A DNA stretch of 63,748 nucleotides, filler included, from Reclinomonas americana ATCC 50394 (taxonomy: Eukaryota), in the NCBI GenBank assembly GCA_048213135.1. It is 4 parts of 3 records of this genome, joined end to end, with 100 filler letters (N's around TTAATTAATTAA, not from the genome) between each part and the next. Parts side by side here need not be neighbours in the genome. Positions count along the whole stretch, not along the records: positions 29,752 to 42,647 come from PS015487.1; 3 more parts are not named here. One strand, written 5' to 3'. The notes beneath the pieces were generated by a model. The model was not told where the DNA came from. It was given only the letters and a program-made list of their open reading frames with translations, and did not search any database. Shown here in pieces: positions 1-56,787 of this stretch (position 1 is the stretch's first letter; each line of letters begins with the position of its first letter). The position numbers and the translations under genes are program-made.

Positions 1-7402
<7,402 letters not shown>

Positions 7403-19722: not shown

Positions 19723-19818
19723 GTGGAAGGAAACAGTGAAGTGAACGCCAAACAAGAATCGTAATCAATGAGATACCCGAATTGCATTTTCGTTCGCCAC
19801 CGCTGCGCGTCTGCCGCC

Positions 19819-21905
19819 TCAAAACGCCATCTTGTAGATCAGTGTGGCCACCAGCAGCAACACGACCAACATGACAGCGTACAGAATGCCGTCGAGGATG
19901 CGGTCTTGTCGGTGCCAGTACTTGATCACGTCGGCGTACGGAATGTGCGAGAAGGTGACCATGGAATACAACGGCAGGTACACGCTCTCGGGGAGGAAGC
20001 GCATGAGGAAGCGCTCCAGTTGCTTGCGACGGCGGAACCACGCGCTGAACAGACAGACACACAGAAGAAACATAAGAAACGCGGAAGACACGGCAAGCTG
20101 CTGCACGCTGACAAACCTGGCCGTGGAGTGACGCATTTCCTTGAAATTGTACAAGGCCAGATCGGCGACGCCGTCGCTGTTGCGCTTGCGCAGACGCGTG
20201 AACTCCGGGCCAATGGCCTTCCAGTCGTCACCTGCACGCCACACACACAGACACGATGAAATTATGGGGACAGCTGCAATATGTCGCTTGGGCGAGTGCT
20301 CACCGTGCTGCTGGATGAGCTCGTCGAGAATCCGACAATCCTCAAAGCCAGCGTTGCACCCTTGGCCGTAGAACGGCACCACAGCGTGTGCGGCGTCGCC
20401 CATCAGGAGGAAGCGGCCGTCGTAGTGGTACGGCTCGCAGCGGATGGTGACCAGCGAGGAGGTGGGGTTGGCGATCCAATCCTGTCGCGTCGCTGTGAGG
20501 GTGCACAACAGACTGGCGGAGACGAGAAGTGGGCGTCCAAACACACGCAACGTGCAGCAAGGTGGGCATCAGAGGCACGGCATCACCGAATTCGCGGCGG
20601 AAGAACTCGAGAATCCGCTCGTCGCGGTCCAGCGTGGAGAAGTTGCAGTCGCCGTGCACGTCGTCCGGGTCGGCGTCGATGCGCATAAAGATGGTGCAGG
20701 TGAACGAGCGGTCCTTGTTCGGCAGCGCAATCATCATGAAGTTCTTGCGCGGCCAGATGTGCAGGCAGTCGGGCTTCATGGCGTAGCTGTCGGCGACGGG
20801 GTGAATCAACAAGAAAGCAACACGAACTCGAGGCGAGCACACACACCCGTCGCGTGCTCCCTCCAATGTGGCGCCACCCGGGATCTCGGCCGCCGGCGGA
20901 ATCAGCAACTCCTGCATACGGGGGTGCGTCAGTATAAGCAGAGGAGGAGGAAGAAGTGAAGAAGACGAGAGGCGCTTCTCACCTTGTACGCGTGTGGCAG
21001 GTAATCCTGCGAGTAATTGAACCGATCCAAGAACTGCATGCCGGCACGAACTTTGCTAAAGGCACCGTCGGCGCCAATCACCAGCTACGTGATTAACAGG
21101 GTGAGTCCAACGAACACACGACAGCAATCAGCATGACAGACGAGAAATGGACCTTGGGCTTCACATCCTGTCGGCGCCCGTCCTTGTCGATCAGCGTAAT
21201 GGTGCGCGAGCGAACGTCCACTGGCGCGATGCTGGTGCCAAACTGAATGTGCACATGCGGATGCCTGCAGGAGGGTGAGACAAAGAGAGGGAGAGAGAGA
21301 AAGAGAGTGACAAGTGACTCGACTTCTCAGCGGCCGTGATGAGAGTCTCGTTGAGATGGCGACGCGGCACACTGAGAATGTGCTGACCGGGTTTGCCATA
21401 GGGTTGCTCAATCAGCTGCCAGCGGGAGGGAGAGGGAGAGAGTCAGGCGATTTCCGCACGACAACAAAAAAGGAATCAGCGCATCTGCAGCACCTCTCCA
21501 GATGTTGTGTGAATCATGCGACCGTACATGGGAACGCCCTCGGCCACCACCTCCTTGGCAATGCCTGTGTGACAAGTGAGCGCGCAATGCTTCTCCCTCT
21601 CTCTCTCTCTCTTTCTCTCTTATACACACACACACCGGCTTCCTCGAGAGCGCGAATGCCGCGGTTGCTCAGGGCCAGATTGATACTGCGACCGGCAATG
21701 ACCTCGGCCACACGCGAGTCAGGTCGACGCTCAATCACCTGTACACGCACATGTGTGTGTGAGAGAGAGAGAGGCGTGAGAGAGTGCGCGGAGTTTTGTT
21801 GGTCACTTGCTCCGCAACTGTGACGGCGAATCCGCGACGAGCAAGGTTGAGAGCACACAGTGCGCCAACGAGGCCGCCTCCAGCAACAAGCACGCTCTCT
21901 TCCAT
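19819..21905 (-). CDS. KMO: Kynurenine 3-monooxygenase
   Basis: GGGLVG FAD motif, GRSINLALSNRG, LHIWPRKNFMMIALPN, LMGDAAHAVVPFYGQGCNAGFED, PLYSMVTFS and a C-terminal TM helix. Confidence 0.95.
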
Positions 21906-22187
21906 TTCTTGATAAGTGTTATGAGAATGCGGATCCGGAGTTGTCCTTATAATTAGCAAATGTCCTTCGGAGGTCTCTCTTTCTCTCTTGTTGCTGTCCT
22001 CCGATGTAAAGAGTGCGGAGGACAGCTTGGGAGGTACGTACAGTGGGTGTGCTGAGAGGCGCAAAGAATCGATGCCAGCATTCGACGTTGATATCAACGT
22101 CGACTGTTTTCGTCGTAACAAAGCTAAACAAACTGTGCACTATGTATCACCACCACCATCGTGAAGGCTATCCGCCATGACCAGCGA

Positions 22188-25100
22188 TCATGTAACCATT
22201 CGTCGCAAAGCAACCACGACTGCGCACGAAGCGAGTGAGCCGCTGCGACACAGAAGAAAGACGCTGGGCAATGCAGAAAAACCACTCACCCTGCTCCCTC
22301 AACAGCGCCGTCAGTGGTCCCAGTGTGGCCAGCACGCCGGTGAAGACGCCGACAATCACCACCGTCATGAATAGACCGGTGGGGAACTCGAACGTGATGG
22401 GCAATTGCGAAAAGAGCGCTCGTTGCAGGGTGGTGGTGACGCCCGTGATGATGCCTGCGGTTGAGTGCTTCTGTGAGACGCATTGCGTGTACAACACGGC
22501 ACCCCAGCGTCCTCCACTCGCTCACCAATGACCACACCCATGATGGATGCCGTAATCACCAGAACAATGGCCTCGTATGTGTACACTCGGCGCACCACAC
22601 TGCGACGGGCGCCCATGGCGCGCACCAGACCAATCTCCTTACTCTGCTCGTGGATGTTGGTGTCTGCGATAGCCGTACATATCAGCAAGTACTCCAATCA
22701 CATGGTACAGGAGCAGCGCTACACGCAACACATGCTGGCCAGCAACGAGAAGAAGCACAAGGCCATGGCCACCACTGTGGTGAAGATGGAAAAGGCCGTC
22801 AACGCCAGCTGCGGAAGAAGAGGAAGGTAGGGTGAGACACACGAGTTGAACAAGGCCGTGACTCGCTCCGCCAAAGAAACCAACCTGCACTTTGTCAAGG
22901 GCGCGCACGTCGCTGGCGATCAACACAGTTAGGCGTGCGACGAATATACAGTAACTGATGGCATCGCGCGCAACTCAAAGTAGTCGCGAAGCGTGAAGCC
23001 TATGCGCCCGTCCACCACGTCGAGCAGCGTCGACTTGACGCTGTCCTTCTCGCTCATGGTGGCCTCCGGTGTCAGTCGGATCATCAGCTCCCGCAGTCCC
23101 AGCTGCAAGCACGGGAAGAGCACCATTCAATAAATCCCCTGAGCTGCACAGACACACATTGGCAACAATCATGCGCACATCATCAACGCTACGGATCCAG
23201 CCGGCACTCATCGCCAGTGTGCTTGGAATGGACACGAGCATGTCCTGGAGAATGCACGCAATATGTGAGTCAATGATACACGCTGTTATTGCATTGCCCT
23301 TTGCTGCGCACACCTCGAGGAAAAATGTGGGATACTTGCTGAACAGGAAGCGTGGTGTGGCATCCATGAGTGCGGCCGGAGTGAACGGGAGAAAGTACTT
23401 TTGTCGCACACCATCTGCGAGGGCGTTGTACATGTCAGCAGTGTTCACCAACGATCATGGCCCTCCGACTCACAAAGCACGCACCGACGGTCTTTGGTAG
23501 CGTGGCGAGGTAGTAGACAAGTGGCGAGGCGGTCCTGTTCGCGCCCAGCAGATCACCGTAGATGCTGCCGATGAGTCCCGACTCGGTGCCAAGGCGTGTC
23601 GTGTACATTTGCTCCGCCAGGCCCTGCAAGACATCGTGATCAGTGCGTCAGATTGTGTCACCATCTTGTGCAATAAAGAAAGCTAACCAGTGTGGACGGC
23701 TGTGCCACGCTGCCGATGACCAAGAACTCGTCGAGGAGGACGTCGTACAAATTGGGTGACACACCACTGCGTTGCTGTGCAGTGAGAAGCAAGGATCACC
23801 GGGGACGATGCACACAGTGCGCGCAACTGAATGGTCTGAAAGTACGCTCGGAAGTTGCCAATGTTGCCAATGGCGGTGTCGTAGATTTCTCTGCTCAAAG
23901 TCAGTCGCAACACACAAGCGCAGCGCAGCAACATGCGGACATGCACACGCAGCGCAACTCGAAATGATCATCTATTCGATGTGTGACCCACGAGAAATCC
24001 TGCACGGCTGGGTGCTTCTCCAGCGCATCTTCAAACTGGCGCACCAGTTCGGGGTTGTTCTGCAGGCTGCCGAGTTTGATATCCATCTGGCGAAGATCAA
24101 GAGACAGATAAGGACAGGCCAACTCGCGCGACCGAGAGGTGGCAGTCACAAGGCGCAACCTTGACATGCACGCCGAGCCGTTGCAGCTGCTGGTACGTGG
24201 TCGACTGCACTTGCATTCGGAAGGTCACCGCAATGAAAATGACAAACGCCAGACTCATAGAATACATCAGTGTGGTCTGCACAGTGTCGATGGTGAGCAC
24301 AGTTGCACAACATGACACACTATGCAAACAAGCCACCTTGCGATTCCTGTCCTTGTGTGAGACGAGATTCTTGATGACCAGCAGTTTTACGGCGCGGTTG
24401 TCCCAAAAGAACAGCACGTGCGTGATGAAGCGCTCCAGCAGCTTCTCCGCATTGAGAGCTGCGCGTCACCCAGTCAGCTCTCAAACCAACACTCCCATCC
24501 GCAGCTTCCGAGAACAACAAACCCAATAACACGAGGCCAAGTAGCATGCCGAAGAGCAGGTAAAAGAGAATGTTGAGCAGCACCGAAAACTGCTGCGTCA
24601 ACAGCGCCAGTGGGAACATGTAGTACGCCAGGAACCTGCGCGCGCGGAAGCATCAGCACAGTGGTCGAAGAACAGCAGCGTGTATCACGCACCCGTACAG
24701 CGTCAACATGGAGCCAACAAACACGAGCGACCAGCTAACACCGGCATCGGCGGCACGGTCAATCTCAAACTACGCAACACTGGAGTGGTGAGCGACGCGG
24801 CAGGCACGCATGCATAGATGTGTACTCTCGCGAGGCGCACCACCACAGCCTTGGTTCGCGGTCGCTCCGTGTCCATGGCGTCCTGCAGTCGTGTCGAGAG
24901 TGCCTGCTTGGCCGGAAAGATGCACGCAAACACTGCCACCAGCGTGGCCAGCAAGGTGGCGCCCACCACTGCATCCGTCGCTAGACCGGAAGGCGGTTCC
25001 ACACTCACCAACTGCGTCAGCATGGACGCCACGCTGCAAAGCAATAGCGGCCAGTGAGCCGGGTGACCGAGCAGCAGGGTGAGCGCGCGACGTGACGATC

Positions 25101-27513: not shown

Positions 27514-29250
27514 GCCCACGGAGAAAGAAAGGGCGATCGCACACACACAAACCTCTGCCGCTGTGATGCGCTCGCGAGGATCGTACACGAGAAGACGTGA
27601 GACGAGATCGATCGCCTCCGGCGATGCGTACATCTCCGGCAGCACCGTCTCCCACGGCTGACTGCGCACGGGTGGGAAGCGATTGTCGGGTACATTCGGA
27701 TTCAGCACGGCGAGCTCCTCGGTAGTGGGTGTGCCCAGAATCTGACAGCAACCAGATATTATTAGCAGTCGAGCGCAACAGGTGACAAGGCAAACATGTC
27801 GAGACGTCGTCACACGCACCGACACAATCTTCACCAACTGGTCGAGATTCGACTCGCCGGCAAAGAGCGGTGTGTCGGTCATGATCTCGCACATGACACA
27901 GCCGATGGACCACATGTCGATGGATGTCGAGTAATTCGCATTGCCAAAGATGAGCTCCGGTGCTCGGTAGAATCTCGAGCAGATGTAGGCCACGTTGGCT
28001 TCGCCGGGAATCAGTCTCTTGGCGGAGCCAAAGTCGCACAGTTTGAGGACGCCGACCGAGGCGTCACACAAGCAGTTCTGCGGCTTGATGTCGCGGTGGC
28101 AAATGCCGAGCGAATGGACATAGGTCAGCGCGCGGCACAGCTGGTACATGAACAGCTGCGGGAAAGAGGGAGGAAGAGTGAGGGAGATAGTTTTTTGGTC
28201 TGGTGTTCTCGAGTACTGCCAACCTTCAGCAGCACGACCGGTACACGCGCCTGCCGCTCAGAGTACGAGTGAATCACACCCTCCAGCGTGTCAGGCATGT
28301 ACTCGAGCACCAAGTTGAGGTAGGTCTCCGCCTGCGCATGCCCCACCCATCCATCAGCCACACACACACTTGCTTCCGCCACGAGAGAGAGACGCAACTC
28401 GATCGGCGCTGTGAGACGAAAAGTGGTGCATCATGTGCACCACATTCGGGTGCCGCAGCTCGCACATGATCTCCAGCTCACGATTCTTGTAGCGCTCGTC
28501 CACCAGCACCTTCTTGATCGCCACCTGTGCACGTGCACGAGCGTGAGCAAGCACAAAGAGAGAGAGAGAGGGAGGGAGAGCGTGCGTGCACAACAAAACC
28601 TCTTGGCCCGTCTGCTCATCCGTGGCCACATACACGGTGGCAAACGCCCCGCGGCCAGCAATCATACGCGCATTGTACTTGTTCTTCTTGCGTGGACTAA
28701 CAAGCACAACAGTCGTCAGCAGCAGAACACAACCAAGCAACAATGCAAAACACAGCTCACCCTGCGCGTATTTTGATGAGCAAACAAGCGAGAGTGAGAG
28801 GTGTGAGCAATCTTCCGCATCATGGCAAATCAATGTCCGTGAATCTTCTCTCGCACACACGCACACCGGCGCACACATGCACACACAAACACACACAGAG
28901 AGACGCGCGCACACATGAACGAACACTCGCTCACACGCACAAACATTCTCCCACTCGCAAACAGCGTGTGCGTGTGTGAGGGAGAACGCGCATGAGAGAG
29001 AGGACCATGTGCGTGCGTGCGTACGTGTGTGTGTCTTTCTCTCTCTCTCTTCTCTCACACTCATCATGACGCACCTCGTTCTGGCGATCCCATCTCCTCT
29101 GCTTCCTCCCTTGCGTGTTGCGCGCTGGTGCTGTTGCTGCTGGTGGTGCTGGTGACGAGGCACGTGGAGGTGCGAGAGGAGAGATTTGCAGACGATGCTG
29201 TTGTGGTGGTGGTGGAGGAGGCGGAGTAAGAGGGATGCGAGTGTCGATGA
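27514..29250 (-). CDS. Glycogen synthase kinase-3 / shaggy-like protein kinase; start uncertain, 3' end in gap
   Basis: VAIKKVLVDERYKNRELEIM, YLNLVLEYMP, ICHRDIKPQN, LKLCDFGSAK and NVAYICSRFYRAPELIFG. Confidence 0.9.
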
Positions 29251-30366: not shown

Positions 30367-32714
30367 ATGGCCGCCGCAGCCGCGGCCCCTCCTCCTCCCG
30401 CCACCAGTGTCTTTGCTCATCTCGATGTGCACCTCCCACACAGCGGTCTATGCGTGGCCGGCACCGGTGCATTCCATCACACACCTCTTGTCTCAGCTCT
30501 CTCTTCCGATCTCACACACACTCTCTCTCACACTCACAGTGCTCACCGGCGACGTGCTCCTCTCTCTGGAGGTACCACGTATTATCCGTTCACTGACTGT
30601 GCGCCTGCGCGGCGAGGAGAGTGTGGGCGCGTTGGGCGAATCAGGTTCTTGATTTCGCGCGCGCACTGATGAACGAGTCACACGCTGATTGCTTGTGTGT
30701 GCGTGCGTCGCAGCTGAGCACGTGCATGTTGATGAGACGCAGAAGCTGTTGCCTCGAGTCGATGGAGGTGCGCACACTGACACACTGACGCGCTTGATCG
30801 ACTTCATTGATTTACACGTGATGATCACAGACTTGTCATCGACCGCCAGCGATGCCGCCACCTTCAAGCCTGTGCATGTGAGGAAAGGTGCGATTCGCGA
30901 GCCTACTGTGCGATTCAGCGTGTGTCTCTCTGTCTTTCTCTTATGCGCGCACACGCAGGCGACTTGGCGTACCCATTCGAGTTCCTCCTCGGCTGGCAGT
31001 TGCCGCCCTCGGCCGAGATCCCGCGCGTCAACGCCCGCGTGTCGTACTCGGTGCACGTGCGCTGCGAGTTTGAGGTACTGCGTGGCACGTCCTCCTCTGC
31101 TACATGCTGCTGTGTGCCTAACACAGCCTGTTTTCCAGGGTGAGCATTCGAAAGTGGTGGTGCTGGAGGTGGAGAAGCCGGTGGCGCTCGTCTGTCGCTG
31201 CAGCCTCGCAAAGGATGTGGCGTTCTACTCGCCTGCTGTGACGCAGGTGTTTGAGGCTGGTGGATTGCACGGCTTGTTGCGTCGACGAGAGAGAGAGAGA
31301 GAGAGAGAGAGCGCGCAGTTTGCTTGTAGGAATGCTCACACTTATCGCAGGGCCTGGCTTCCGCGACGTGTGGCGTTTCTGGGTGAGACGTGCCAGGTTC
31401 AAGTCACCTGCAATCGCTTCCACAGTGCAGGTGGGTGACTGGAATGGACTTGCGCGACTTTTCTCTGTCCGCCCCATTCTCATCCGTTCTCTTCCAGGCA
31501 TCCGCGAAGTGGAGGTCACCCTGGTGCAATCGACGGTGATTGCGCGACGAAGAGACGACGCTGCACCCGAGATCCCGGATCGCGAAAAGACTGTGGGAGT
31601 GGCGGTGCGCAAGAGAATATCTCCGAGCACGTACATGAACCAGGCGACGCAGACGGTGGAGCAGCGAGATTCATTCAACGTGGTGCGTGCACGAGGTGGC
31701 TCTCATGTTATTGTCTTGCCGTGCATGGGAGGCTCACTCTCTTTGCAGAAAGTCGACATTGAGATGCCCAAGACAGTGATGCCGTCGTTCCACGCACACT
31801 GGTGAGTGTCACGTCGTTTGCGTTCACCTGACGCACGTTGCTNNNNNNNNNNNNNNNNNNNNGCGGCACACTCACGTGTCGCCGGAGCACGTGGTGAAGC
31901 ACTATTTGGAGAAGAAACTCAGCAAGGTGAGGTGGTGGTGTTCTGCTCCGACGAGTATTGTGTACACCGCTGCCCTCACTCCTGTGAGACATGCAGGGCG
32001 GTGGCGAAAGGTCACGTGGTGGTACAGCGAGTGCCGGTGGTGCTTCGTCGGTGAGGCAGCCTCCTTACCCCCCCTTTTTACTTTGGTTCCTTCACACACT
32101 TCGTCGCGCAGGACTTGTCTTCCTCATCCTCTCGACCTCGCCCGTCGAGCTACCTCTCCAAAGCCGATCGCCGCTACATTTACACGGCGTGCCAGTGCCT
32201 CACACACGACGCACTGAATGTGGTCATTCACTGCACGGAGTTAGAGGCCAGTCTGTTGCACGAGGAGACCAAGTTGGTGACCACGCCGGCATCAGTGGCC
32301 TTGTGTCAGTGTGTTGCCGAACTGGCGTTGTCGCGCATCCAGCTACTGGAGTCGATCCAGGTCTCGCGGTTACGTGGCGTCTCGCTGGACTCGTTCGATG
32401 TGCGGCAGATTGATCCGAGCACGGGATTCGTCAAGAGTTGCGCTGTTTTTCTGAGCTGCTGCTGCTCCTACTCCTGCTCTCGTCCTCACCAGTCTACAGC
32501 CATGGCCATGGATGTGTGGGGCGAGCGAACCAGCGAACGTGACGACATTGCGGTGCGCAGAGAACGAGCTCTCCACCACCCGTCGCTGCGGACCGACAAT
32601 CCAAGCATGAGCGACCTGCTGCCACCGTGCGAACATGGCCTACCCGGCCTTCCCGCCCTTGCGCTTCCACACCAACGGCCAAATGACTATGACTCTAGCG
32701 ACTCTGTGTTGTAA
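30367..32714 (+). CDS. Arrestin-domain protein with PH-like C-terminal region
   Basis: Arrestin-N-like segments (IRSLTVRLRGEE; AYPFEFLLGWQLPPS...VSYSVHV) and arrestin-C-like segments (IREVEVTLVQ; IEMPKTVMPSF). These are followed by HYLEKKLSK|GRWRKVTWWYSECRWCF, which resembles a PH N-terminus. Confidence 0.65.
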
Positions 32715-33990
32715 ATAAAGTGATGGACGAGGTTGTTGAAGTTCAGTGGCGGGAACCTCACGCTCGCGGGTGGACAATCCGTCTTTGTTGTTGTTCACCG
32801 CCGTGCGCGTAGGTGTGTCGCTCCCCCTTCCTCACCTCGCGTGTGTTACGTTGCCCCTTCCATCCCCCAGGTGCTGCGACGAGCCAGCGAAACGAACTTG
32901 CGTTGCCCAGCCACAGAGAGACAAGAGAGAAAGAGTTTTATTCTTTGTGTCGTTTTCGCGCGCACTCTCTCCTCTTTCTCTGTGTGTGCCTCTCTCGTTC
33001 TCCATTGAGGGAGGTGGTTGTATCGTGTTACGTTGGATGAGGGTTGCGTTGCTCGCCAACACGGAGTGGCGCCCTGACAACTCCCAAGGGGAATACACAA
33101 GAATCCATTCATGTTACGCATACGCTCCCGTGCACGCACCTGCAACGTGTGTGCGTGTGCCTCCAAAACAAAAGTCTACGTATAAACCACGCCCTTGTTG
33201 CGTTTGTGCGCGCGCTTCGTTGCCCACTCACTGCTGCGAGGCTGGATCGAGAAGGGAGGAGAGTCCATCTTTGGTCTTCTTGTTTTGTTGCGGCTTGTTA
33301 CGCCCTTCCCCGCTCTCTCTCCTTCTCGCGTGGCCGTTTTCTGTAACCCTCACGGTAACACTGCGCGGTAAGCACAGGAGGAAGCAAAGCTTGTGTGCAT
33401 GTAACACCCACTAAGAGCATCAAAGTTACACATCACGTTACGACTCGGTCTCGCTCTTGCTCGTCTCCCGTCTTGCGCGCTTGACACTCTATCACACGTG
33501 CACTGTGACGACAGTGTGTGGTCTGCGTATGTGCGCGCGCGTGTGTTGGTTGTGGACATTGCCGTTTGGGGGGTGGGGGAAAAGTTGCGGCTCAGACGCT
33601 GTGGGAGACAACGTGGACCACTGCCTCGTGTGCCCTCTACCGCACATGCGCACACGGCAGCGCACGTGCGTGTGTGCGCGTGTGGGTAGGGAGCATGGGC
33701 ATCTCTGCGTTTGCCCCGCGCACGTTTGCACTTTTGCCGTCGTCGGTGCGTGCTTGGAGCAGCGAGTAGCTACGGTGGGAGTGCGTGCACAGCAGGTTGG
33801 AAGTGTGTGTGCGCGCGTGTGTGTGGACTGCTCGTCATTGGGATGGTGGTGCGTTTTTTTCGTTCCACTTCGCATCGTGGCGCCGAGCACGACGACACGC
33901 AGGCCACCGCCGTGTGATGCATGAGGCGTGTGCGGCGTGGGAGCGAGGCACCGAGTGTCCAGTCTGGGTGGGATTGTGCGACACGGGGCG

Positions 33991-34060: not shown

Positions 34061-34214
34061 ATACGTAACTTGGTGGGGCCCGGAACGATCAAGCAGGTTC
34101 CGACCGGCTTGGGGCTTGGCCCCAATGCACTATAGGGGTAGCCCCCTGTCTTACCACGCAAGTGGTGGACACCGAAATTTTTTATAGGTGGGAGTCGAGT
34201 TCGCTCGCCCCGCT
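34061..34214 (+). ncRNA. U1: U1 spliceosomal snRNA with variant 5' splice-site recognition sequence (AUACGUAACUUG)
   Basis: Starts ATAC. Helix H is GGTG/CACC. SL1 is CGGAAC-[GATCAAGCAG]-GTTCCG (U1-70K loop). SL2 is GGGGCT..CCCC-[AATGCACTATA]-GGGG.AGCCCC (U1A-like loop). SL3 is TACCAC-[GCAA]-GTGGTG. The Sm site AATTTTTTATAG is at about 34176-34187. SL4 is CGAG-[TTCG]-CTCG. Order and spacing match U1. Confidence 0.95.
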
Positions 34215-34361
34215 CTCCTCTTGTGGATGATGAAGACGAAGATGTGCGGTGAGGGGAGGGGAGTGTGGAGAGAAGAGAGGGTGCTTGCTGCTTGGGAAAG
34301 AGGAGAGAGTTAGCTTCTTTTGATGTGGGTGCAATGCCAGATAGATGTTTGTCGTGTTGGC

Positions 34362-34494
34362 TGCTTGCTGGTGCTCTTCCTGTCATGGATCGCGGGATGC
34401 TCTGCGTGTTGGCCGGGATGCTTCTCGTCTTGGCTGCCTGCTGTTCGTGGGCCTTCCGCCGTGCTTGCTGGTGCTCTTCATGTCACGGATCGCG
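34362..34494. repeat. 33-bp direct repeat, two copies 100 bp apart
   Basis: TGCTTGCTGGTGCTCTTC[C/A]TGTCA[T/C]GGATCGCG at 34362-34394 and 34462-34494. Confidence 0.8.
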
Positions 34495-38826: not shown

Positions 38827-40407
38827 GACGAATGCTGCGCGCGATTGGCGGAAGTACACCTTGCACTTGCAAGTTGCGAGGTCGCGCACGTCGCCGTCCA
38901 CGCACTCGGAGCAAGTCGTCCACCAGGTTAGCAGCAGGGCAGTGGCGACGATTGCAGCCACAACAACGATGCGTGTCACCCAAAAGCACAACCCGCATGG
39001 CGTTGGTCGCCGGAGGCGCACTCGTTCCGGCACATGAGCGCTCATGTCGTCGGCGGGCTCGTAGCCGAGCGACATTCGCGACGACCGACAGTGATGCTCG
39101 CAGTAGCACTGCCAGCACTCTGCGCAGCCGGCTTGAACAATCGAGTCCGCGGAGCCATCCACACTCGGGCGAGTGTGCGGCTCTGGATCTTCCACGTCGT
39201 GTAGGTACGCGTATCTNNNNNNNNNNNNNNNNNNNNNNNNNNNNNNNNNNNNNNNNNNNNNNNNNNNNNNNNNNNNNNNNNNNNNNNNNNNNNNNNNNNN
39301 NNNNNNNNNNNNNNNNNNNNNNNNNNNNNNNNNNNNNNNNNNNNNNNNNNNNNNNNNNNNNNNNNNNNNNNNNNNNNNNNNNNNAGCAGGAGCTGCAGGA
39401 GAAGATTCGTGTCATGCAGCTGGAGCAGCGTGGTTTTGAGGTGCAAGTCAAGCAGCTGGAGTTGCAGTTGCAGCAAGTGACCGAAGCGAAGCGATTCGTT
39501 GCGTATTCGTTCTCTTTACGAGTGTGGTAGCGCTGTGCTGACGTTGTGGTCAGGCCGACGAGTCGTGCCAGCGATACGTGGAACAGACGCACGATCTGCA
39601 GACACGCAATCGGCAACTCGAGCGCGATCTGGAGGCCACTCGTCGCGAGTTGGCCGAGTTGAGGACGCGATGGGATGCCAGCGAGGCGCAGCGCACTCGA
39701 CAGCAGCAGATGCAGGCGGAGCATGCGGCGTCCCTGGCGTCGCTGCAGAACGAGCTGCAGTTGCAGCAGAAGCAGGCGTTGCAGTCACAGAAGCAGTTGG
39801 AGGAGCTGCGTGTGGTCTACGGCATGCTGCGCGAGGAGAAGGTGAGCGCATGTATGTTCAGCAGCTCTTGTGAGCGCGCATGCATTCTCACTCGTCGTCC
39901 TCATGTGCTCCGCAGACCAAGATGGAGGAGGCTGCACTGGTCAAGGAGGAGAGGTATCGTGCGCTCGACAAGCAGAACGAGGACGTGCGCGTGGAGAATC
40001 GTGTGCTCTCGGACGAACTTGCCGAGACACGACAACAGTTGCGAGATGCGCGCACGGAGTGCGACGACTTGAACGTGGCGCTCTCCGAGAAGACGGTGCT
40101 GGTGCGGCAGCTGCAAGACCGCGTGGAGCAGGGCCAGATCTTGGAGAAACTCGACATGGGCGAGTTCAAGCGCATGATGCGCACCAATGTGCAGGTGGCG
40201 CAGACCATCAGTCAGCTGATGGGCAAACTCGGTGCCGATGGCGAAGACGGCAACGGCGACGAATTCGACGAGTACGGTGGTGAGCAGCAACAACAGCAAC
40301 TGCAACAACAACCATCGCAACAGCCGTCGGTGCCGTTCAGGCCACCACAGCAACAACCTCGCGGTGGCAACGGTCGTGGTAGTGGTGGTGGTGGTGACGG
40401 ATACTGA
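38827..40407 (+). CDS. Coiled-coil protein; start uncertain
   Basis: Long E/Q/L/R heptad-rich exons joined by short introns. Stop at 40405-40407. Confidence 0.65.
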
Positions 40408-42151: not shown

Positions 42152-42223
42152 AGCCGACTGTGGGGGTCGAACCCACGACCTTCTCCTTAGGAGGGAGACT
42201 CGCTACCACTGCGACAAGCCGGC
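42152..42223 (-). tRNA. tRNA-Arg(CCT)
   Basis: 72-nt cloverleaf GCCGGCT TG TCGC AGTGGTA GCGA G TCTCC CT-CCT-AA GGAGA AGGTC GTGGG TTCGACC CCCAC AGTCGGC T, followed by oligo-T runs. Confidence 0.93.
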
Positions 42224-42335
42224 ATCATTCTATCCCGTTGAATCTAGACCCGCGTATGGTGAAACGAAGCACGCTCAAGAAGATATGTGAGTCACACAAC
42301 AAACACACACTACACAACACAGCCTCAGTGCGCGC

Positions 42336-42603
42336 ATGTGGCGACACCTGCAGCGGTGCGTGCATTCTGCGCACTCACTTTGCACGTCCTCACGCATGCA
42401 CTCACTCACTCTTCATGCACAGGTGGCGGCGATTGTTTTCGCAGGATGCTGTGGCGACAGTGTCGGCCTTTCGTGATCGCATCTGCTTGCCCAGCACGGC
42501 CTTCCCGATGCGCGCCGATGCTGCGCAGCGAGAGGCTGCGCTGGCCAAGCGGTGTACGGAGGCACTTTACCGTAGACAGGTGGGTAATGAAGAGGAGGGA
42601 GGA

Positions 42604-42647
<44 letters not shown>

Positions 42648-42747
42648 NNNNNNNNNNNNNNNNNNNNNNNNNNNNNNNNNNNNNNNNNNNNTTAATTAAT
42701 TAANNNNNNNNNNNNNNNNNNNNNNNNNNNNNNNNNNNNNNNNNNNN

Positions 42748-42787
<40 letters not shown>

Positions 42788-45700
42788 GAGAGTGATCTTT
42801 CCCACTCACTTGTCGGCGTCACCACAGGAACTCGAGTACACGGATCAGCACGTGTCGACGTCGGCATATGTGTCGACACCAGTGGTGCGTGCGGACGGCG
42901 AGGCCGCTGCTGGTAGGTCAAGTGTCGGTGTGCACACTCAATGCCATCCACCAACTGCATTCTTCCCCCGGCGCAGCTCTTCTCTCCCGCTTCCCGGGTC
43001 TGCAGATGGCTGTGTGGACCACCACACCGTGGACCCTGCCGTCGAATCAGGTTTGCCGAGTGTCGCGCCACTGCTTCACCCACTTCCATTTCGGTTCATG
43101 ACTGGTGCTTCTGCAGGCCATGTGTGTGCATCCGGAGCACGAATACTGCGTGGTGACAACTCCATCGTCGAATATGCCACTTTTGTTGGGGGTCGAGCTG
43201 GTGGATCATGTCGCCAAGAGCGTGTTTGGTGGTGCCCCACTGCAAGTGGTCAGCGAGCCCATTTCCGGCACGCATCTGGCGAACCACATGTGGTGTGCGC
43301 ACCCGTATTTCAGCACCACTGAAGTTACACACGCAGGGGGTGTTTCAATTTCCCCTCTGTCTCACTCACGTACAAATAAGGTGCCGGTCTTGTCGGGGAC
43401 GCACGTTACGAGTGACAGCGGCACGGGCATTGTGCACACGGCGCCGGCGCACGGTCACGACGATTATGAAGTATGCAAGCAGTACGGAATTGAGCCGACG
43501 ATGCGAGGTGTGGAGTCGAACGTGTCCACAATCTTGTACCCGCTCTCTCACTCTCTCTCTCTCTCTCTCATCTCATCCTCTCCGTTGCAGTGGACGATCT
43601 CGGTCTTTTCTGTCGTGGCACGGCTCCCGAGCTGGACGGCTTGGCCGTTCTGAAGGAGGGCAATGCAGCAGTGATTGAGAAGCTCAAGGCCGACGGACGC
43701 ATTCTTGCCACCATGGCGTACCAGCATCGCTACCCCTACGACTGGCGGACAAAGAAGCCCGTCATCATTCGTTCGACTCGTCAGTGGTTTGCACGCCTCT
43801 CTGATGGCTCTTCTGCGGGCGGACTGAAGGTGTGGACGAGGAGAGCGTGTGCAGATGATGTTGCGTTGCGTGCGCTCACGCACGCTGCTTGTGTGTGTGT
43901 GCAGGATGCGGCCTCTCGTGTCGTGGAAGATGTGCAGTTTGTACCGCCTTCATCTCGTGCACGTCTCGCTGGCATGCTTGGATCACGTTCCGAGTGGTGC
44001 ATCTCACGTCAGCGAGTGTGGGGTCTCCCCATTCCCGCATTTTACCACAAGGACACTGGTTTGTGCGCCCGGGTGGCGACGATGCGATTCCCCGACGCAC
44101 ACTCACTCTCAAATGCACTCTTTGCAGATGAGGTTCTGCTCGACGAATCAACCATTCGTCACCTGCAGTCCCTTGTTCGCAACCACCCGCGCGGATCCGA
44201 CTGCTGGTGGGAGCTGTCCACAGCCGAGTTGCTTCCGACCGAGCACAGACATCGAGGTCCGTGTGCGCCTCTCATACATCAGTGCCGACACTGATCATTC
44301 TCTCTCTCTCTCTTTCTCTGTGAACACAGCTGCCGAGTTTGAAAAAGGCAAAGACACACTCGATGTGTGGTTCGACTCTGGCACCTCGTGGGCCGGCGTT
44401 CTGCGCCAGCGCAACATTTTCCCGGCCGATGTGTACCTGGAGGGCAGCGATCAGCATCGCGGCTGGTTCCAGTCGTCGTTGCTTACGTCGGGTGCGTTCC
44501 AGCAAGATCACGAAAAACCACGCAGATGGTGGATGACTCACTCTTTCTTTCCCATGTCGCATGTCAGTGGCGTGCTCCGGTCAAGCTCCGTATCGTCACC
44601 TGGTGACGCACGGTTTTGTGGTGGACTCGGAGGGGCGAAAGATGAGCAAGAGCATCGGCAACATTGTGGAGCCGCACGTTATTGTGCAAAAGTATTCGGC
44701 CGATGTACTGCGCGGTTGGGTGGCATCGTCGGATTACACGGCTGATGTGCCACTCGGCGAGCAGCTGCTCAGTTGCGCCCCGCATGATGTGCATTCTTTT
44801 GCTGCTGCTGCTACCACAATACTCACGGCATCGTCTCGCAGAGCATGTGGCAGAGGGTGTGCGTAAAGTACGCAACACGTGCCGTTTCCTGCTCGGCAAC
44901 CTGCACGACTTTGTGCCCCTGGCAGTCGAGGAGCCCATCACTCATCCACACGATCGCTACATGTTGCACCTGCTGGGTGACTTTGCGCGGCACGTACAAA
45001 CCGAGTACGACGAGTATGCCTTTTCACGAGGTTTTGTGCTCTGCAGTTGCCCAGCCTCACCTTTGCACGTCGTCGTCGTCACTCATGAGGTGCGCGCAAC
45101 AGTGTGGACGCGGGTCTCCATTTTTTCGGCGTCGACTCTCTCTGCATTCTACCTCGACCTGATCAAAGACCGCTTGTACGCCGACGCACCACAAAGTCAC
45201 TCGCGACGGAGCGCGCAGCGCGTGTGTGCCAAAGTTACGTGTTTGTCATATCGGTGTCAACACTGATGCCGTGGACCTCACCGCGGGTCATCGACAGATT
45301 CTCGAGTACCTCACCAAGTCTGTAGCCCCACTGCTACCGCACTTGGCCGAGGACGTGTACCAGCACTTGCCAGCCGGAGCACAGTGGTCAAAGAAGAGTG
45401 TCGAGTCCGTCTTCGAAACAGGCTGGATTGATGCGGTTTGTAATTTCTGCAGTTGTCCTCTTGCCTTTGCCGTCTCGCTCACCCGCGATGCAGCCATCCG
45501 AGTGGACACTGGACGCCGACATGCTTGCCAAGTGGACCGCGGCACTGCGGCTGCGCGACGCCTTTTACACTGTCGTCGATGTGGCGCGCAAGAAGAAGTT
45601 GCGCTGTGTGCGGTTCGTGAGGGCATCACTTTTTCGTGAGTCTTACTTTTGCATGCACAGATTCGTGGGCAACTCACTCGAGTGCATCATGGTGATTGCG

Positions 45701-46109
45701 GCATCGGATGCAACCATTCTCGCCGAACTGAAGCAACTCGCCTCTGATGTGAATCTAGCCGATGCCGCACTTGTCTCGTCGGTGGAGTTTGCGACAGAGC
45801 CGACGTTGACTGGCGAGTATGTGGCATCGATTCCGTGGGCGGCCGACGCGACTGGTTCGTTTCCATTTTGTGGTTTCGTGTGTGCGATGGTTGCTGATGT
45901 TCACGAGTGCACCCGCAGTGTCGGTTGCTCTCACTCGCTCGACAAAGCACAAGTGTCCGCGCTGCTGGAAGCATGTGGCAGTCAAGGGTGTGTCGCACGC
46001 TGTTCTCGCCGCAGGTCACTCTCTCCAGTCCACTCATTCACCTTTCTATTTCACAGAGAACGAGCTGTGTGGACGCTGCGATGATGTGATGCGCTCGTGG
46101 AACCAGTGA
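42336..46109 (+). CDS. IARS2: Isoleucyl-tRNA synthetase, mitochondrial/bacterial type
   Basis: Transit-peptide-like [85 protein letters not shown] and a C-terminal CPRC..LCGRC zinc finger. The HIGH region is lost in the scaffold gap. Confidence 0.93.
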
Positions 46110-55374: not shown

Positions 55375-56691
55375 TTAATCGTCTACGACTGGTGGCGGTG
55401 GGACGGCGGCCGCCGACGTCTTCTTGGCGCCCGTGCCTGTGCAACCGCGCCACCGTCGCGCGAGGATCCACCGCTCCTTCTCCCAGTCCCAGAACTGCGG
55501 GCGATGCTCGCCAGCCCGCTCCTGATCCCACCGATGCAACGCTTGCATGCAGGCGTCGAGACGCGCGTTGCAAAAGAGCGCCGATGATCGTCGCTGTGCC
55601 GGACCCATGCCCACGCACAGGAGACGAGCACGGCCCATCTCCACGCAAAACGGCGACGGCCGTTCGTCGAGGCTGGCGTCTTGTTGCTGCTGACCCATGT
55701 CGGCGGCGGTGATTCGTCGTACCAGCGACTCGAGATCGAAATTGAAGGGCAAGTGCAGCACCGCCAGGTCGCACGCACGCGACAAGGTGTGCACGAGCAG
55801 CTCGACGAGGGTGGTGGCACCGAGAGGAAGATCACTGATTGTTTCCTGCTGCGAATACTCGCCGCCACCCCACGGTGGAGATGCAAACATGCAACACGGA
55901 AACTCCTCGTCCGCGGTCGACGTGAGACGCGCAGCCAGGTAATCGTTACAGTCCATGGGCGCACGTACATCGACGTGCGACAAGCCGAGCACATCGCACA
56001 CATTGTGGCGACAGTCGGCCCCACGGTCCGCCTCCAGCTCCACGCCAGTGACACGCGCAAAGAACGAGTGACGACCCAGGCCAGCCAACATGCCGCCACT
56101 GCCCGCAGCAAAGTCCACTGCCTCGCTGGCACTGGCCCCAGCCGCGCGCATCAGCGTCGCCATCAGCTCCGCAATGTCGTCGGCTGTGTGCTGATCGATG
56201 AGCGAGTACTCGCCCTCACGATCCACACGCAGTCGCACACGCTGCTCAAAGTCCACGTCCGGGAACGAGGTGTCCAGCTTGGAGAGCGCAGGCGCCACAC
56301 GCAGTGGCGGTCCTGGCGTCTTCTCCACTGCTGCTGCCGAGCTCTCCCCTCCATCTCCGTCACCTCGTTCACGCTCACGTTCCTCATCAATGCGCAACAC
56401 TCCATTCAGTGCACGCACAGCTGCGTCACGTGCACCCTCACTCGGCATGTAGACGTATGCCCACCCGCGTGAGTGGCCTCCACTAGTCTTGTCCACACGC
56501 ACTCGCGTGCAGCCGAACGGAGCAAATGCCGCCCTGCGACGAGGAGATCGGTGAGACCGACAGAGTGAGGGCTTTGTGCGTGTGTGTGCATGCAACTTGA
56601 GTGCTCGACGCACGCCAACGCCTCGGACGTGCCGGCGCAGACCACTGACAAAGGCCACAGAGGCACTGCGTGCGGTCTTCACGTCGCTCAT
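55375..56691 (-). CDS. RRM-fused trimethylguanosine synthase (TGS1-like RNA cap guanine-N2 methyltransferase)
   Basis: N-terminal RRM (AFVSGL as RNP2; SRGWAYVYM as RNP1; AVRALNG). Then VDREGEYSL, a SAM motif VDFAAGSGG, GVELE, CRHNV and FASPPWGG, the TGS1 family motif. Confidence 0.8.
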   Translation of the reverse strand: MSDVKTARSASVAFVSGLRRHVRGVGVRRALKLHAHTRTKPSLCRSHRSPRRRAAFAPFGCTRVRVDKTSGGHSRGWAYVYMPSEGARDAAVRALNGVLRIDEERERERGDGDGGESSAAAVEKTPGPPLRVAPALSKLDTSFPDVDFEQRVRLRVDREGEYSLIDQHTADDIAELMATLMRAAGASASEAVDFAAGSGGMLAGLGRHSFFARVTGVELEADRGADCRHNVCDVLGLSHVDVRAPMDCNDYLAARLTSTADEEFPCCMFASPPWGGGEYSQQETISDLPLGATTLVELLVHTLSRACDLAVLHLPFNFDLESLVRRITAADMGQQQQDASLDERPSPFCVEMGRARLLCVGMGPAQRRSSALFCNARLDACMQALHRWDQERAGEHRPQFWDWEKERWILARRWRGCTGTGAKKTSAAAVPPPPVVDD

Positions 56692-56787
56692 TGCGGAAGA
56701 CCGGAAGGAGGAAGGACAAGGGACGAGGCACATGCATTCGTGGTTTCAACCCATTCATTCCTACGTATAGTGTGCTGTCGCTGACGA

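Follow-up and report, generated by a model that had tools for sequence, protein, structure and literature searches.

A stretch of 63,748 nucleotides of DNA from Reclinomonas americana ATCC 50394 (GenBank assembly GCA_048213135.1), referred to at its full length as the window, carries a gene for U1, a small nuclear RNA (snRNA), in which the 5' arm, the guide that reads 5' splice sites, departs from the canonical sequence. The changed arm matches a distinct class of donors, A|GTT(G/A)CG, here called class B, which makes up 8 of 36 introns mapped by homology (22%) and is present in all four genes in which introns were mapped. The gene would encode a functional U1 snRNA with its 5' arm re-tuned to this class of 5' splice site.

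Does this RNA work beside a canonical U1 elsewhere in the genome, each reading donors of its own? Or, is it the only U1 of the organism, reading all donors in more than one way? A second, specialised U1 beside an unseen canonical one, with a division of labour between two donor classes, is the likeliest reading of the sequence, and we give it about an even chance of being right. The gene and its anatomy, the donor class, and the complementarity with its specificity are shown by the observations that follow; that the gene is expressed, that labour is divided and that a canonical copy exists are what we infer from them.

The U1 gene and its 5' arm

The Rfam U1 family RF00003 matches 34061-34214 (+) with 64.0 bits, at an E value of 1.6e-15 when 701 nt are searched and 1.5e-13 for the whole window. 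From 34061 (+) onward the sequence reads ATACGTAACTTGG. The match to the covariance model (CM) is full-length and without truncation, with helix H and four stem-loops (SL1 to SL4) in consensus order (Table 1). An earlier note, made from the letters alone, had described a complete U1 architecture here, and helix H, SL1 to SL4 and the Sm site are all present in this alignment. SL1, SL3 and SL4 are recovered by free folding too. In the middle of SL2 and SL3 the fit to the model is imperfect, and SL2 is the least certain stem, as the minimum free energy (MFE) fold prefers two small GGGGC/GCCCC hairpins at that place. The locus folds at -66.7 kcal/mol (z -2.87), and none of 200 shuffled sequences folds equally well.

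An Rfam scan of the window gave one U1 locus, at which U1 and not the U11 family RF00548 is reported (cmscan, E<=10, with only the best clan member kept). Besides this locus no second snRNA-like match was found in the 63.7-kb window with Rfam at E<=0.1. A scan of metagenomes for the variant arm together with the SL1 loop gave 19 loci, none of which has a U1 by Rfam (E<=0.01), and these are chance matches.

Aligned to the Rfam consensus AUACUUACCUG, the arm AUACGUAACUU is identical at 8 of 11 positions and differs by U5G, C8A and G11U. These three substitutions substantiate the non-canonical 5' end reported in the earlier note. The guide had also been taken to be one nucleotide longer, which does not hold: the alignment gives an unpaired arm of 11 nt without a gap, the same as in the consensus, after which helix H begins. 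To judge from this alignment, what changes in the variant arm is the pairing register and not the length. In the established model C8 of U1 pairs with G+1 of the donor, A7 with U+2, and positions 6 to 3 with +3 to +6. With A at arm position 8, a contiguous helix is possible only with C9 facing G+1.

Table 1. Coordinates of the U1 gene, its parts, and the class B introns in the window.
Feature	Position	Strand	Evidence
U1 snRNA gene, 154 nt	34061..34214	+	Rfam RF00003, model positions 1-166 of 166
Single-stranded 5' arm ATACGTAACTT, 5' splice-site guide	34061..34071	+	Gapless alignment to Rfam consensus
Helix H 5' strand, GGTG (G12-G15)	34072..34075	+	Paired with CACC at 34170-34173 in CM alignment
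Stem-loop 1, with 10-nt U1-70K-type loop GATCAAGCAG at 34087-34096	34076..34110	+	9/10 loop positions as in Rfam consensus (RNA GAUCAAGCAG against GAUCAaGAAG)
Stem-loop 2, with U1A-type loop AATGCAC at 34124-34130	34111..34145	+	CM alignment; loop AAUGCAC identical to U1A type AUUGCAC at 6/7 positions
Stem-loop 3, 7-bp stem and GCAA tetraloop	34146..34169	+	MFE and centroid folds; region CM-aligned
Helix H 3' strand, CACC	34170..34173	+	CM alignment
Sm-site region GAAATTTTTTATAG	34174..34187	+	Aligned to the model's single-stranded Sm stretch; predicted Sm site AAATTTTTTA (RNA AAAUUUUUUA) inside it, between SL3 and SL4
Stem-loop 4, TTCG tetraloop	34188..34213	+	CM alignment, high posterior probabilities
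RPC1 intron, 67 nt, donor caa|GTTGCGCAG	5627..5693	-	6/8 alignments; variant arm -11.3, canonical -1.4 kcal/mol
RPC1 intron, 62 nt, donor tga|GTTGCGTCA	1427..1488	-	8/8 alignments; variant arm -10.8, canonical -2.6 kcal/mol
IleRS intron, 70 nt, donor tca|GTTGCGCCC	44772..44841	+	8/8 alignments; variant arm -8.2, canonical -1.2 kcal/mol
IleRS intron, 64 nt, donor aaa|GTTACGTGT	45234..45297	+	8/8 alignments; variant arm -12.6, canonical -1.6 kcal/mol
IleRS intron, 63 nt, donor gaa|GTTGCGCTG	45598..45660	+	6/8 alignments; variant arm -9.7, canonical -1.7 kcal/mol
KMO intron, 80 nt, donor aca|GTTGCGGAG	21739..21818	-	10/10 alignments; variant arm -8.7, canonical -1.7 kcal/mol
KMO intron, 70 nt, donor cac|GTTGCGTGT	20482..20551	-	9/10 alignments; variant arm -10.4, canonical -1.4 kcal/mol
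GSK3-like kinase intron, 67 nt, donor cga|GTTGCGTCT	28332..28398	-	Exon end is the last GSK3-aligned residue
Probable RPC1 intron, 64 nt, donor caa|GTTGCGTGT	302..365	-	Frame logic; 2/8 alignments only
Possible RPC1 intron, 73 nt, donor caa|GTTGCGTGT	1785..1857	-	Intron-like anatomy, frame-consistent short-exon chain

Two classes of donor

Introns were mapped with a custom protein-to-genome spliced aligner, which admits only GT/GC...AG introns and has no preference at other donor positions. Homologues of RPC1 (8), IleRS (8) and kynurenine 3-monooxygenase (KMO; 10) were aligned, and an intron was kept if at least 5 of 8 (RPC1), 6 of 8 (IleRS) or 6 of 10 (KMO) alignments agreed on it. This left 11 introns in RPC1, 11 of 54 proposed donor-acceptor pairs in IleRS and 10 of 25 in KMO. 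The pairs dropped from RPC1 mostly had a single vote and lay in an N-gapped stretch, in a non-conserved insertion (4.4-1.7 kb) and in the C-terminal tail. Four introns of a GSK3-like kinase gene were added from residue-by-residue continuity with solved GSK3 chains; for the one at 28599 the glycine-loop alignment behind it is weak (E 0.16-0.23), and after the intron at 28332..28398 the next exon, of 36 aa, resumes at the following residue of the GSK3 chain. Counts for 32 introns refer below to RPC1 (1-7400, -), IleRS (43000-45700, +) and KMO (20000-21900, -), with 7 introns of class B and 25 of class A, and counts for 36 include the GSK3-like gene (8 and 28). A codon-usage Viterbi gene finder recovered 3 of the 32 verified introns and was discarded. 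The 32 introns are 56-85 nt long, with CTGAY/CTCAC-like motifs upstream of an acceptor that is CAG in 31 cases and TAG in one; the four GSK3-like introns are 67-78 nt long and all end in CAG.

Class B donors are found in RPC1 (2/11), IleRS (3/11), KMO (2/10) and the GSK3-like gene (1/4). Among the 32 introns six have GTTGCG and one GTTACG, and the GSK3-like gene adds one GTTGCG. The motif GTT(G/A)CG stands at 8 of 36 donors, whereas in the same transcripts 5 out of 633 GT sites that go unused have it (odds ratio 36, p 3e-8); in the smaller set the figures are 7 of 32 introns and 4 of 560 such decoys (p 2e-7). The preceding exon base is also characteristic, with A at -1 in 6/7 class B donors versus 1/25 of class A (p 5e-5), and the eighth class B donor, cga|GTTGCGT of the GSK3-like gene, has A there as well.

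The remaining donors, class A, follow (R)AG|GTNNGT, with G at -1 in 23/25, G at +5 in 19/25 and T at +6 in 16/25, and with positions +3 and +4 at background (n=25). For all 32 donors together the counts are A 20 at -2, G 23 at -1, T 12, G 11, C 6 and A 3 at +3, no preference at +4, G 19 at +5, and T 16 and G 13 at +6. The general 5' splice-site consensus is unusually loose, with a pyrimidine at +3 in 18/32 and only AG|GT..GT kept. By eye, branch-like motifs, CAG acceptors and lengths (56-85 nt) are similar in the two classes.

An independent check used a score of 3-mer composition, intron versus exon, that ignores intron positions +1 to +8 (leave-one-gene-out area under the receiver operating characteristic curve (AUC) 0.89). 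The sites scored were 3899 GTs of either strand that lie outside the U1 gene and the three training genes. The check is crude in that untranscribed and antisense GT sites are included, but its outcome agrees in direction with the homology counts. At a threshold of 20, intron-like sequence follows 29/60 GTT(G/A)CG sites versus 731/3839 other GT sites (p 4e-7); at 30 the counts are 15/60 versus 341/3839 (p 2e-4), and at 40 they are 5/60 versus 126/3839 (p 0.05).

Individual donors named in the earlier note fared differently. The AAA-type donor of IleRS at 45234 was chosen in every homologue alignment. The string reported for the RPC1 donor 365 is there on the minus strand, and spliced to 302 or 278 this donor provides the frame change needed to bring in a PTLLS tail, a conserved motif seen in homologue tails; it is alone in this among the GT donors within about 10 nt. 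The candidate intron from 365 to 302 has a CGCTCAC branch-like motif and a CAG acceptor, but with agreement from two alignments it is graded as probable. The string at RPC1 donor 1857 is likewise present on the minus strand, and an ACTCAC branch-like motif and a CAG acceptor give it the look of an intron; it lies in the non-conserved insertion, without homology support, and is therefore no more firmly placed than possible. A homologue search with residues 400-603 of the TTL-like gene was without a match, and 17699, 18046 and 18847 stay candidate class B donors.

Class B introns were considered as a repeat (introner) family and rejected as such, having nothing in common beyond the donor when inspected. 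The idea that class B donors are GC donors shifted by 3 nt was also set aside, as the GTTACG case argues against it. In exons, class B motifs at caa|GTTGCGCA (RPC1, 1014, -) and cac|GTTACGAG (IleRS, 43405, +) are unused according to the homology alignments.

Fit of the arm to the donors

Duplex energies were computed with ViennaRNA, and AUC values were taken against decoy GT sites. For class B donors (n=8) the duplex with the variant arm averages -10.5 kcal/mol (AUC 0.996), and that with the canonical arm -2.0 (AUC 0.33). For class A (n=28) the canonical arm gives a mean of -6.9 kcal/mol (AUC 0.89) and the variant arm -4.1 (AUC 0.64), and of 25 class A donors 22 are bound more strongly by the canonical arm than by the variant. 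As class B donors bind the canonical arm worse than the average decoy does, some other reader is needed for them.

With C9 facing G+1, class B donors form 8-10 pairs over the 11 positions from -3 to +8, and their preference for A at -1 matches U10, which faces -1 in this register. Among all 2268 arms with three substitutions, the observed one comes 5th-6th in its binding of the seven class B donors of the smaller set (top 0.3%), and every better-ranked arm shares U5G and some change at C8. Single and double hybrids attribute the class B fit to U5G and C8A together (-10.6), and G11U adds little energy. For separating class A from decoys, the variant arm stands at the 38th percentile of the triple variants. 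The earlier proposal of a U1 co-adapted to an abundant non-standard donor class is upheld by these figures and by the share of class B among the donors.

On the proposed mechanism, arm nucleotides 3-11 (ACGUAACUU) would pair contiguously with AA|GUU(A/G)CGU. G+1 would face C9 and not C8, U+2 would face A8, and the extra U+3 would face A7; R+4 would then lie opposite U6, C+5 opposite G5, G+6 opposite C4 and U+7 opposite A3, with exon positions -1 and -2 opposite U10 and U11. The register would be shifted by one nucleotide, and seven intron bases would be read instead of six. U5G and C8A would remove exactly the two mismatches that the canonical arm has in the shifted register.

The arm also bears on a third reading, that the U1 copy at this locus is silent or in decay, as a pseudogene or inactive variant would be, and that its match to GTTGCG donors is coincidental. 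Many variant U1 copies of large genomes are reported to be pseudogenes (PMC10870369), and both the score below the Rfam gathering cut-off (64.0 versus 69.5) and the imperfect alignment of SL2 and SL3 would suit such a copy. However, each helix is preserved, as are the two loops for protein binding, the Sm site and the tetraloops, and for random decay to reach the top 0.3% of 2268 arms for the most over-represented odd donor class would be very rare. The need of class B donors for a non-canonical reader (canonical AUC 0.33) speaks against it too, and we regard an inactive copy as unlikely.

One U1 or two

If there are two U1 RNAs, the variant U1 particle would commit GUURCG introns, about one in five here, a canonical U1 encoded elsewhere would commit the majority AG|GUNNGU, and both intron classes would be finished by the same U2-type spliceosome. 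This division of labour is rated likeliest on the fit of class A to the canonical arm, the 38th-percentile standing of the variant arm on class A, the enrichment of GTNAG among real donors (6/32 versus 22/560, 5.6-fold), and the opposite preferences at -1. G at -1 in class A and A at -1 in class B are what would be expected of two arms that have C9 or U10, respectively, facing -1.

Several observations count against this reading. The sample comprises 36 introns, taken from four genes of a single contig, and no canonical-arm U1 was found within the 63.7-kb window. The U1 locus is 5.5 bits short of the RF00003 gathering score of 69.5. Five sites with the perfect motif, the exonic ones at 1014 and 43405 among them, are unused as donors, so that pairing to the variant arm alone is insufficient to define a donor. 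Opposite G5 and U11 of the variant arm, class A donors have a pyrimidine at +4 in 17/25 (decoys 55%) and a purine at -3 in 18/25 (decoys 43%); at these two positions, which no other constraint governs, class A thus suits the variant somewhat better than the canonical arm. Finally, contacts with U5 and U6 could maintain A at -2, G at -1, G at +5 and U at +6 in class A, in keeping with general knowledge and with PMC11732430; the contrast in AUC between the arms is therefore no proof of a second U1.

Could a single U1 read both classes in two registers? It would form a contiguous nine-pair shifted helix on A|GUURCGU, with C9 facing G+1, and give up the C8:G+1 pair. On AG|GUNNGU its helix would be mismatched or bulged, either in the canonical register, with -1 G paired to C9, a G.A mismatch at +1, +5 G paired to C4 and +6 U to A3, or with A7 bulged. 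The arm bases that face five conserved class A positions (-2, -1, +2, +5 and +6) are all unchanged, namely U10, C9, A7, C4 and A3, and G5 and U11 suit the +4 pyrimidine and -3 purine of class A better than the canonical bases do. With the variant arm, duplexes of GTACGT, GTGCGT and GTGTGT donors reach -4.5 to -9.3 kcal/mol. For the described lineages with changed arms, Entamoeba and Mastigamoeba, a single U1 candidate each is reported in a preprint (bioRxiv 10.1101/2022.06.08.495308), and human U1 is reported to use shifted and bulged registers (PMC4856993).

However, a sole U1 of this kind would barely separate class A from decoys, as its AUC of 0.64 and the 22/25 donors that prefer the canonical arm indicate. 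GTNAG donors bind it weakly, at -2.4 to -4.1 kcal/mol for GTGAGT, GTGAGA and GTGAGC and at -1.5 and -3.7 for two GTCAGT, yet they are enriched. A C9:G+1 register used everywhere would favour A at -1, which class A has in 1/25, and to forgo pairing with the invariant G+1 in four-fifths of introns would carry a high cost. We hold a sole U1 to be possible, though less probable than two. The earlier note had offered the same choice, between a second, specialised U1 and a single U1 with one A bulged, and it was well chosen. The GTGCGT and GTACGT donors that it invoked for the second alternative are present, as a minority of the very degenerate main class AG|GTNNGT.

Apart from introns, the densest cluster of GTT(G/A)CG lies directly upstream of the U1 gene on the same strand, at 32351-33650 (+), with 11 sites in 1300 nt versus 1.1 expected (Poisson P(>=9) ~3e-6), and 6 of the window's 16 GTTACG sites fall within 32369-33437. 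The cluster is mostly past the stop codon of the upstream open reading frame (ORF) and an AATAAA (~32712), where degenerate repeats occur, and in it 32437 alone passes the composition-score cut-off of 30. The cluster could be a target of an expressed RNA whose main role is other than splice-site commitment, such as control of 3'-end formation or retention in a telescripting-like manner. Given the strong association of the motif with real donors in four genes, and the overlap of the cluster with local degenerate repeats, such a role is very improbable.

Comparison with known U1 snRNAs

The variant shares with canonical U1 (RF00003) the 11-nt arm, helix H, four stem-loops, the 70K-type and U1A-type loops and the Sm site, and differs in 3 of 11 arm positions, among them C8, the partner of the invariant G+1. 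With U11 and U12-type introns it shares the logic of a separate snRNA for a separate, sharply defined minority donor class. It differs from that system in that the RNA scores as U1 and that the branch-like motifs, acceptors and lengths of class B introns are those of other introns; set beside the U12-type consensus as generally known, nothing in class B introns points to U12-type branch sites.

Changed U1 arms have been described in other eukaryotes. In Entamoeba a U1 with ACAAAC matches GUUUGU donors, Mastigamoeba balamuthi has a U1 with ACGUAC and GUGCGC donors, Physarum polycephalum has a standard and a modified U1, and Thecamonas, Micromonas and 69 yeasts retain the canonical arm despite donors with a pyrimidine at +4 (Roy and Bowser, bioRxiv 10.1101/2022.06.08.495308). 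The U1 RNAs of these Archamoebae have in common with the variant that substitutions in the arm restore pairing to an atypical donor and that they are easily missed by a standard CM search, and that of Mastigamoeba has the same U5G change. In them C8 and the register are retained, the dominant donor is matched and a single U1 candidate is reported. In the variant, by contrast, C8 is lost, the register is shifted by one, and the donors matched are a 22% minority beside a degenerate, canonical-like majority. Complementarity to the dominant donor consensus, of the Entamoeba and Mastigamoeba kind, was not found: the arm fits 8 of 36 donors and AG|GTNNGT only weakly (AUC 0.64). What was found is a defined donor set that the variant arm matches and the canonical arm does not (class B, n=8).

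Genomes with two kinds of U1 offer another comparison. The diplonemid S. specki has a second U1 with a C-rich arm, and both its U1 RNAs are comparably complementary to the canonical 5' splice-site logo (PMC12621601); human variant U1 snRNAs exist beside canonical U1 (PMC10870369, PMC13172311). In Physarum, S. specki and human, an altered-guide U1 beside a canonical one is the architecture proposed here, where a canonical copy is predicted from the fit of class A donors to the canonical arm. The accounts consulted of Physarum and the human variants note no sharply defined donor class matched base for base; the variant described here has nine contiguous pairs to a defined hexamer donor class. 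Human U1 also reads 5' splice sites in shifted and bulged registers (PMC4856993), with G+1 read one position off or with a one-nucleotide bulge. There the canonical arm is reported to tolerate odd donors, whereas here a changed arm makes the shifted register perfect.

The earlier note had known of no described equivalent. That statement has to be corrected, as the U1 RNAs described from Entamoeba, Mastigamoeba, Physarum and S. specki are co-evolved or second U1s. In the literature searched no natural U1 without C8, no register-shifted arm and no GTTGCG donor class was found, the U1 sequences of the preprint being uncompared. Co-evolved U1 arms are themselves already known; what seems to be new is that C8 is lost and the register shifted.

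Other features of the window

The window has about 55% G+C and 19 N gaps. The RPC1 gene (1-7400, -) was searched with a 352-aa ORF, which has its best match in the jakobid Seculamonas (65% identity over 66% of the query) and about 53-62% identity to other eukaryotes. Other genes encode USP, TTL-like, kinesin and GSK3-like kinase proteins. On its gene content the source is an intron-rich, deep-branching eukaryote, for which the protein collection searched contains no close relative. Andalucia godoyi, which is poor in introns (PMC7050145), was rejected as the source.

The KMO gene (19800-22150, -) has best matches that are mostly bacterial or unnamed, at ~45% identity. The IleRS gene (42200-46100, +) is of bacterial type, and its best matches are unnamed cluster representatives at ~31-58% identity (tblastn); its length and C-terminal cysteine motif we take to be bacterial or organellar. 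KMO and IleRS each have at least 10 spliceosomal introns. A tRNA-Arg(CCU) gene lies just upstream of IleRS at 42152-42223 (-), with 63.8 bits. An Rfam scan of the window at gathering thresholds reported a tRNA alone; as the U1 gene scores below its gathering score, a default Rfam scan and standard annotation miss it.

Just downstream of the U1 gene, 34344-34494 (+) contains two 33-nt direct repeats 100 nt apart (94% identical) and three 18-21-nt copies. A 456-aa Tgs1-like ORF at 55378-56745 (-) has the RNA cap guanine-N2 methyltransferase domain PF09445 (E 1.1e-11); Tgs1 is the type of enzyme that hypermethylates snRNA caps. An ORF at 22368-22697 (-) codes for the C-terminal domain of an FtsX-like permease (PF02687, E 1.2e-8), an unusual find in a nuclear gene of a eukaryote. 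A sub-threshold match to the fungal sRNA Afu_254 at 39750-39810 (-), with 38.8 bits (gathering 60) and E 0.0085, may be snoRNA-like or due to chance.

Conclusions

The U1 arm ranks with the best conserved RNA sequences of eukaryotes, and to our knowledge natural changes in it are known from few lineages only. The variant adds a change at C8, together with a sharply delimited class of donors beyond the reach of the canonical arm, and would be one of the rare examples in nature of a splicing machinery that has changed in step with its targets. To predict genes in this genome, two donor models are required, of which one has A at -1 and T at +3. Should the variant be accompanied by a canonical U1, the major spliceosome of this organism would have a two-reader system, and a third intron class would be set at the U1 step. 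If the variant is the sole U1, the C8:G+1 pair would be dispensable, and slippage of the register would be how 5' splice sites are ordinarily recognised in this lineage, and not an exception. In both cases it becomes possible to test in which direction snRNA and splice sites co-evolved.

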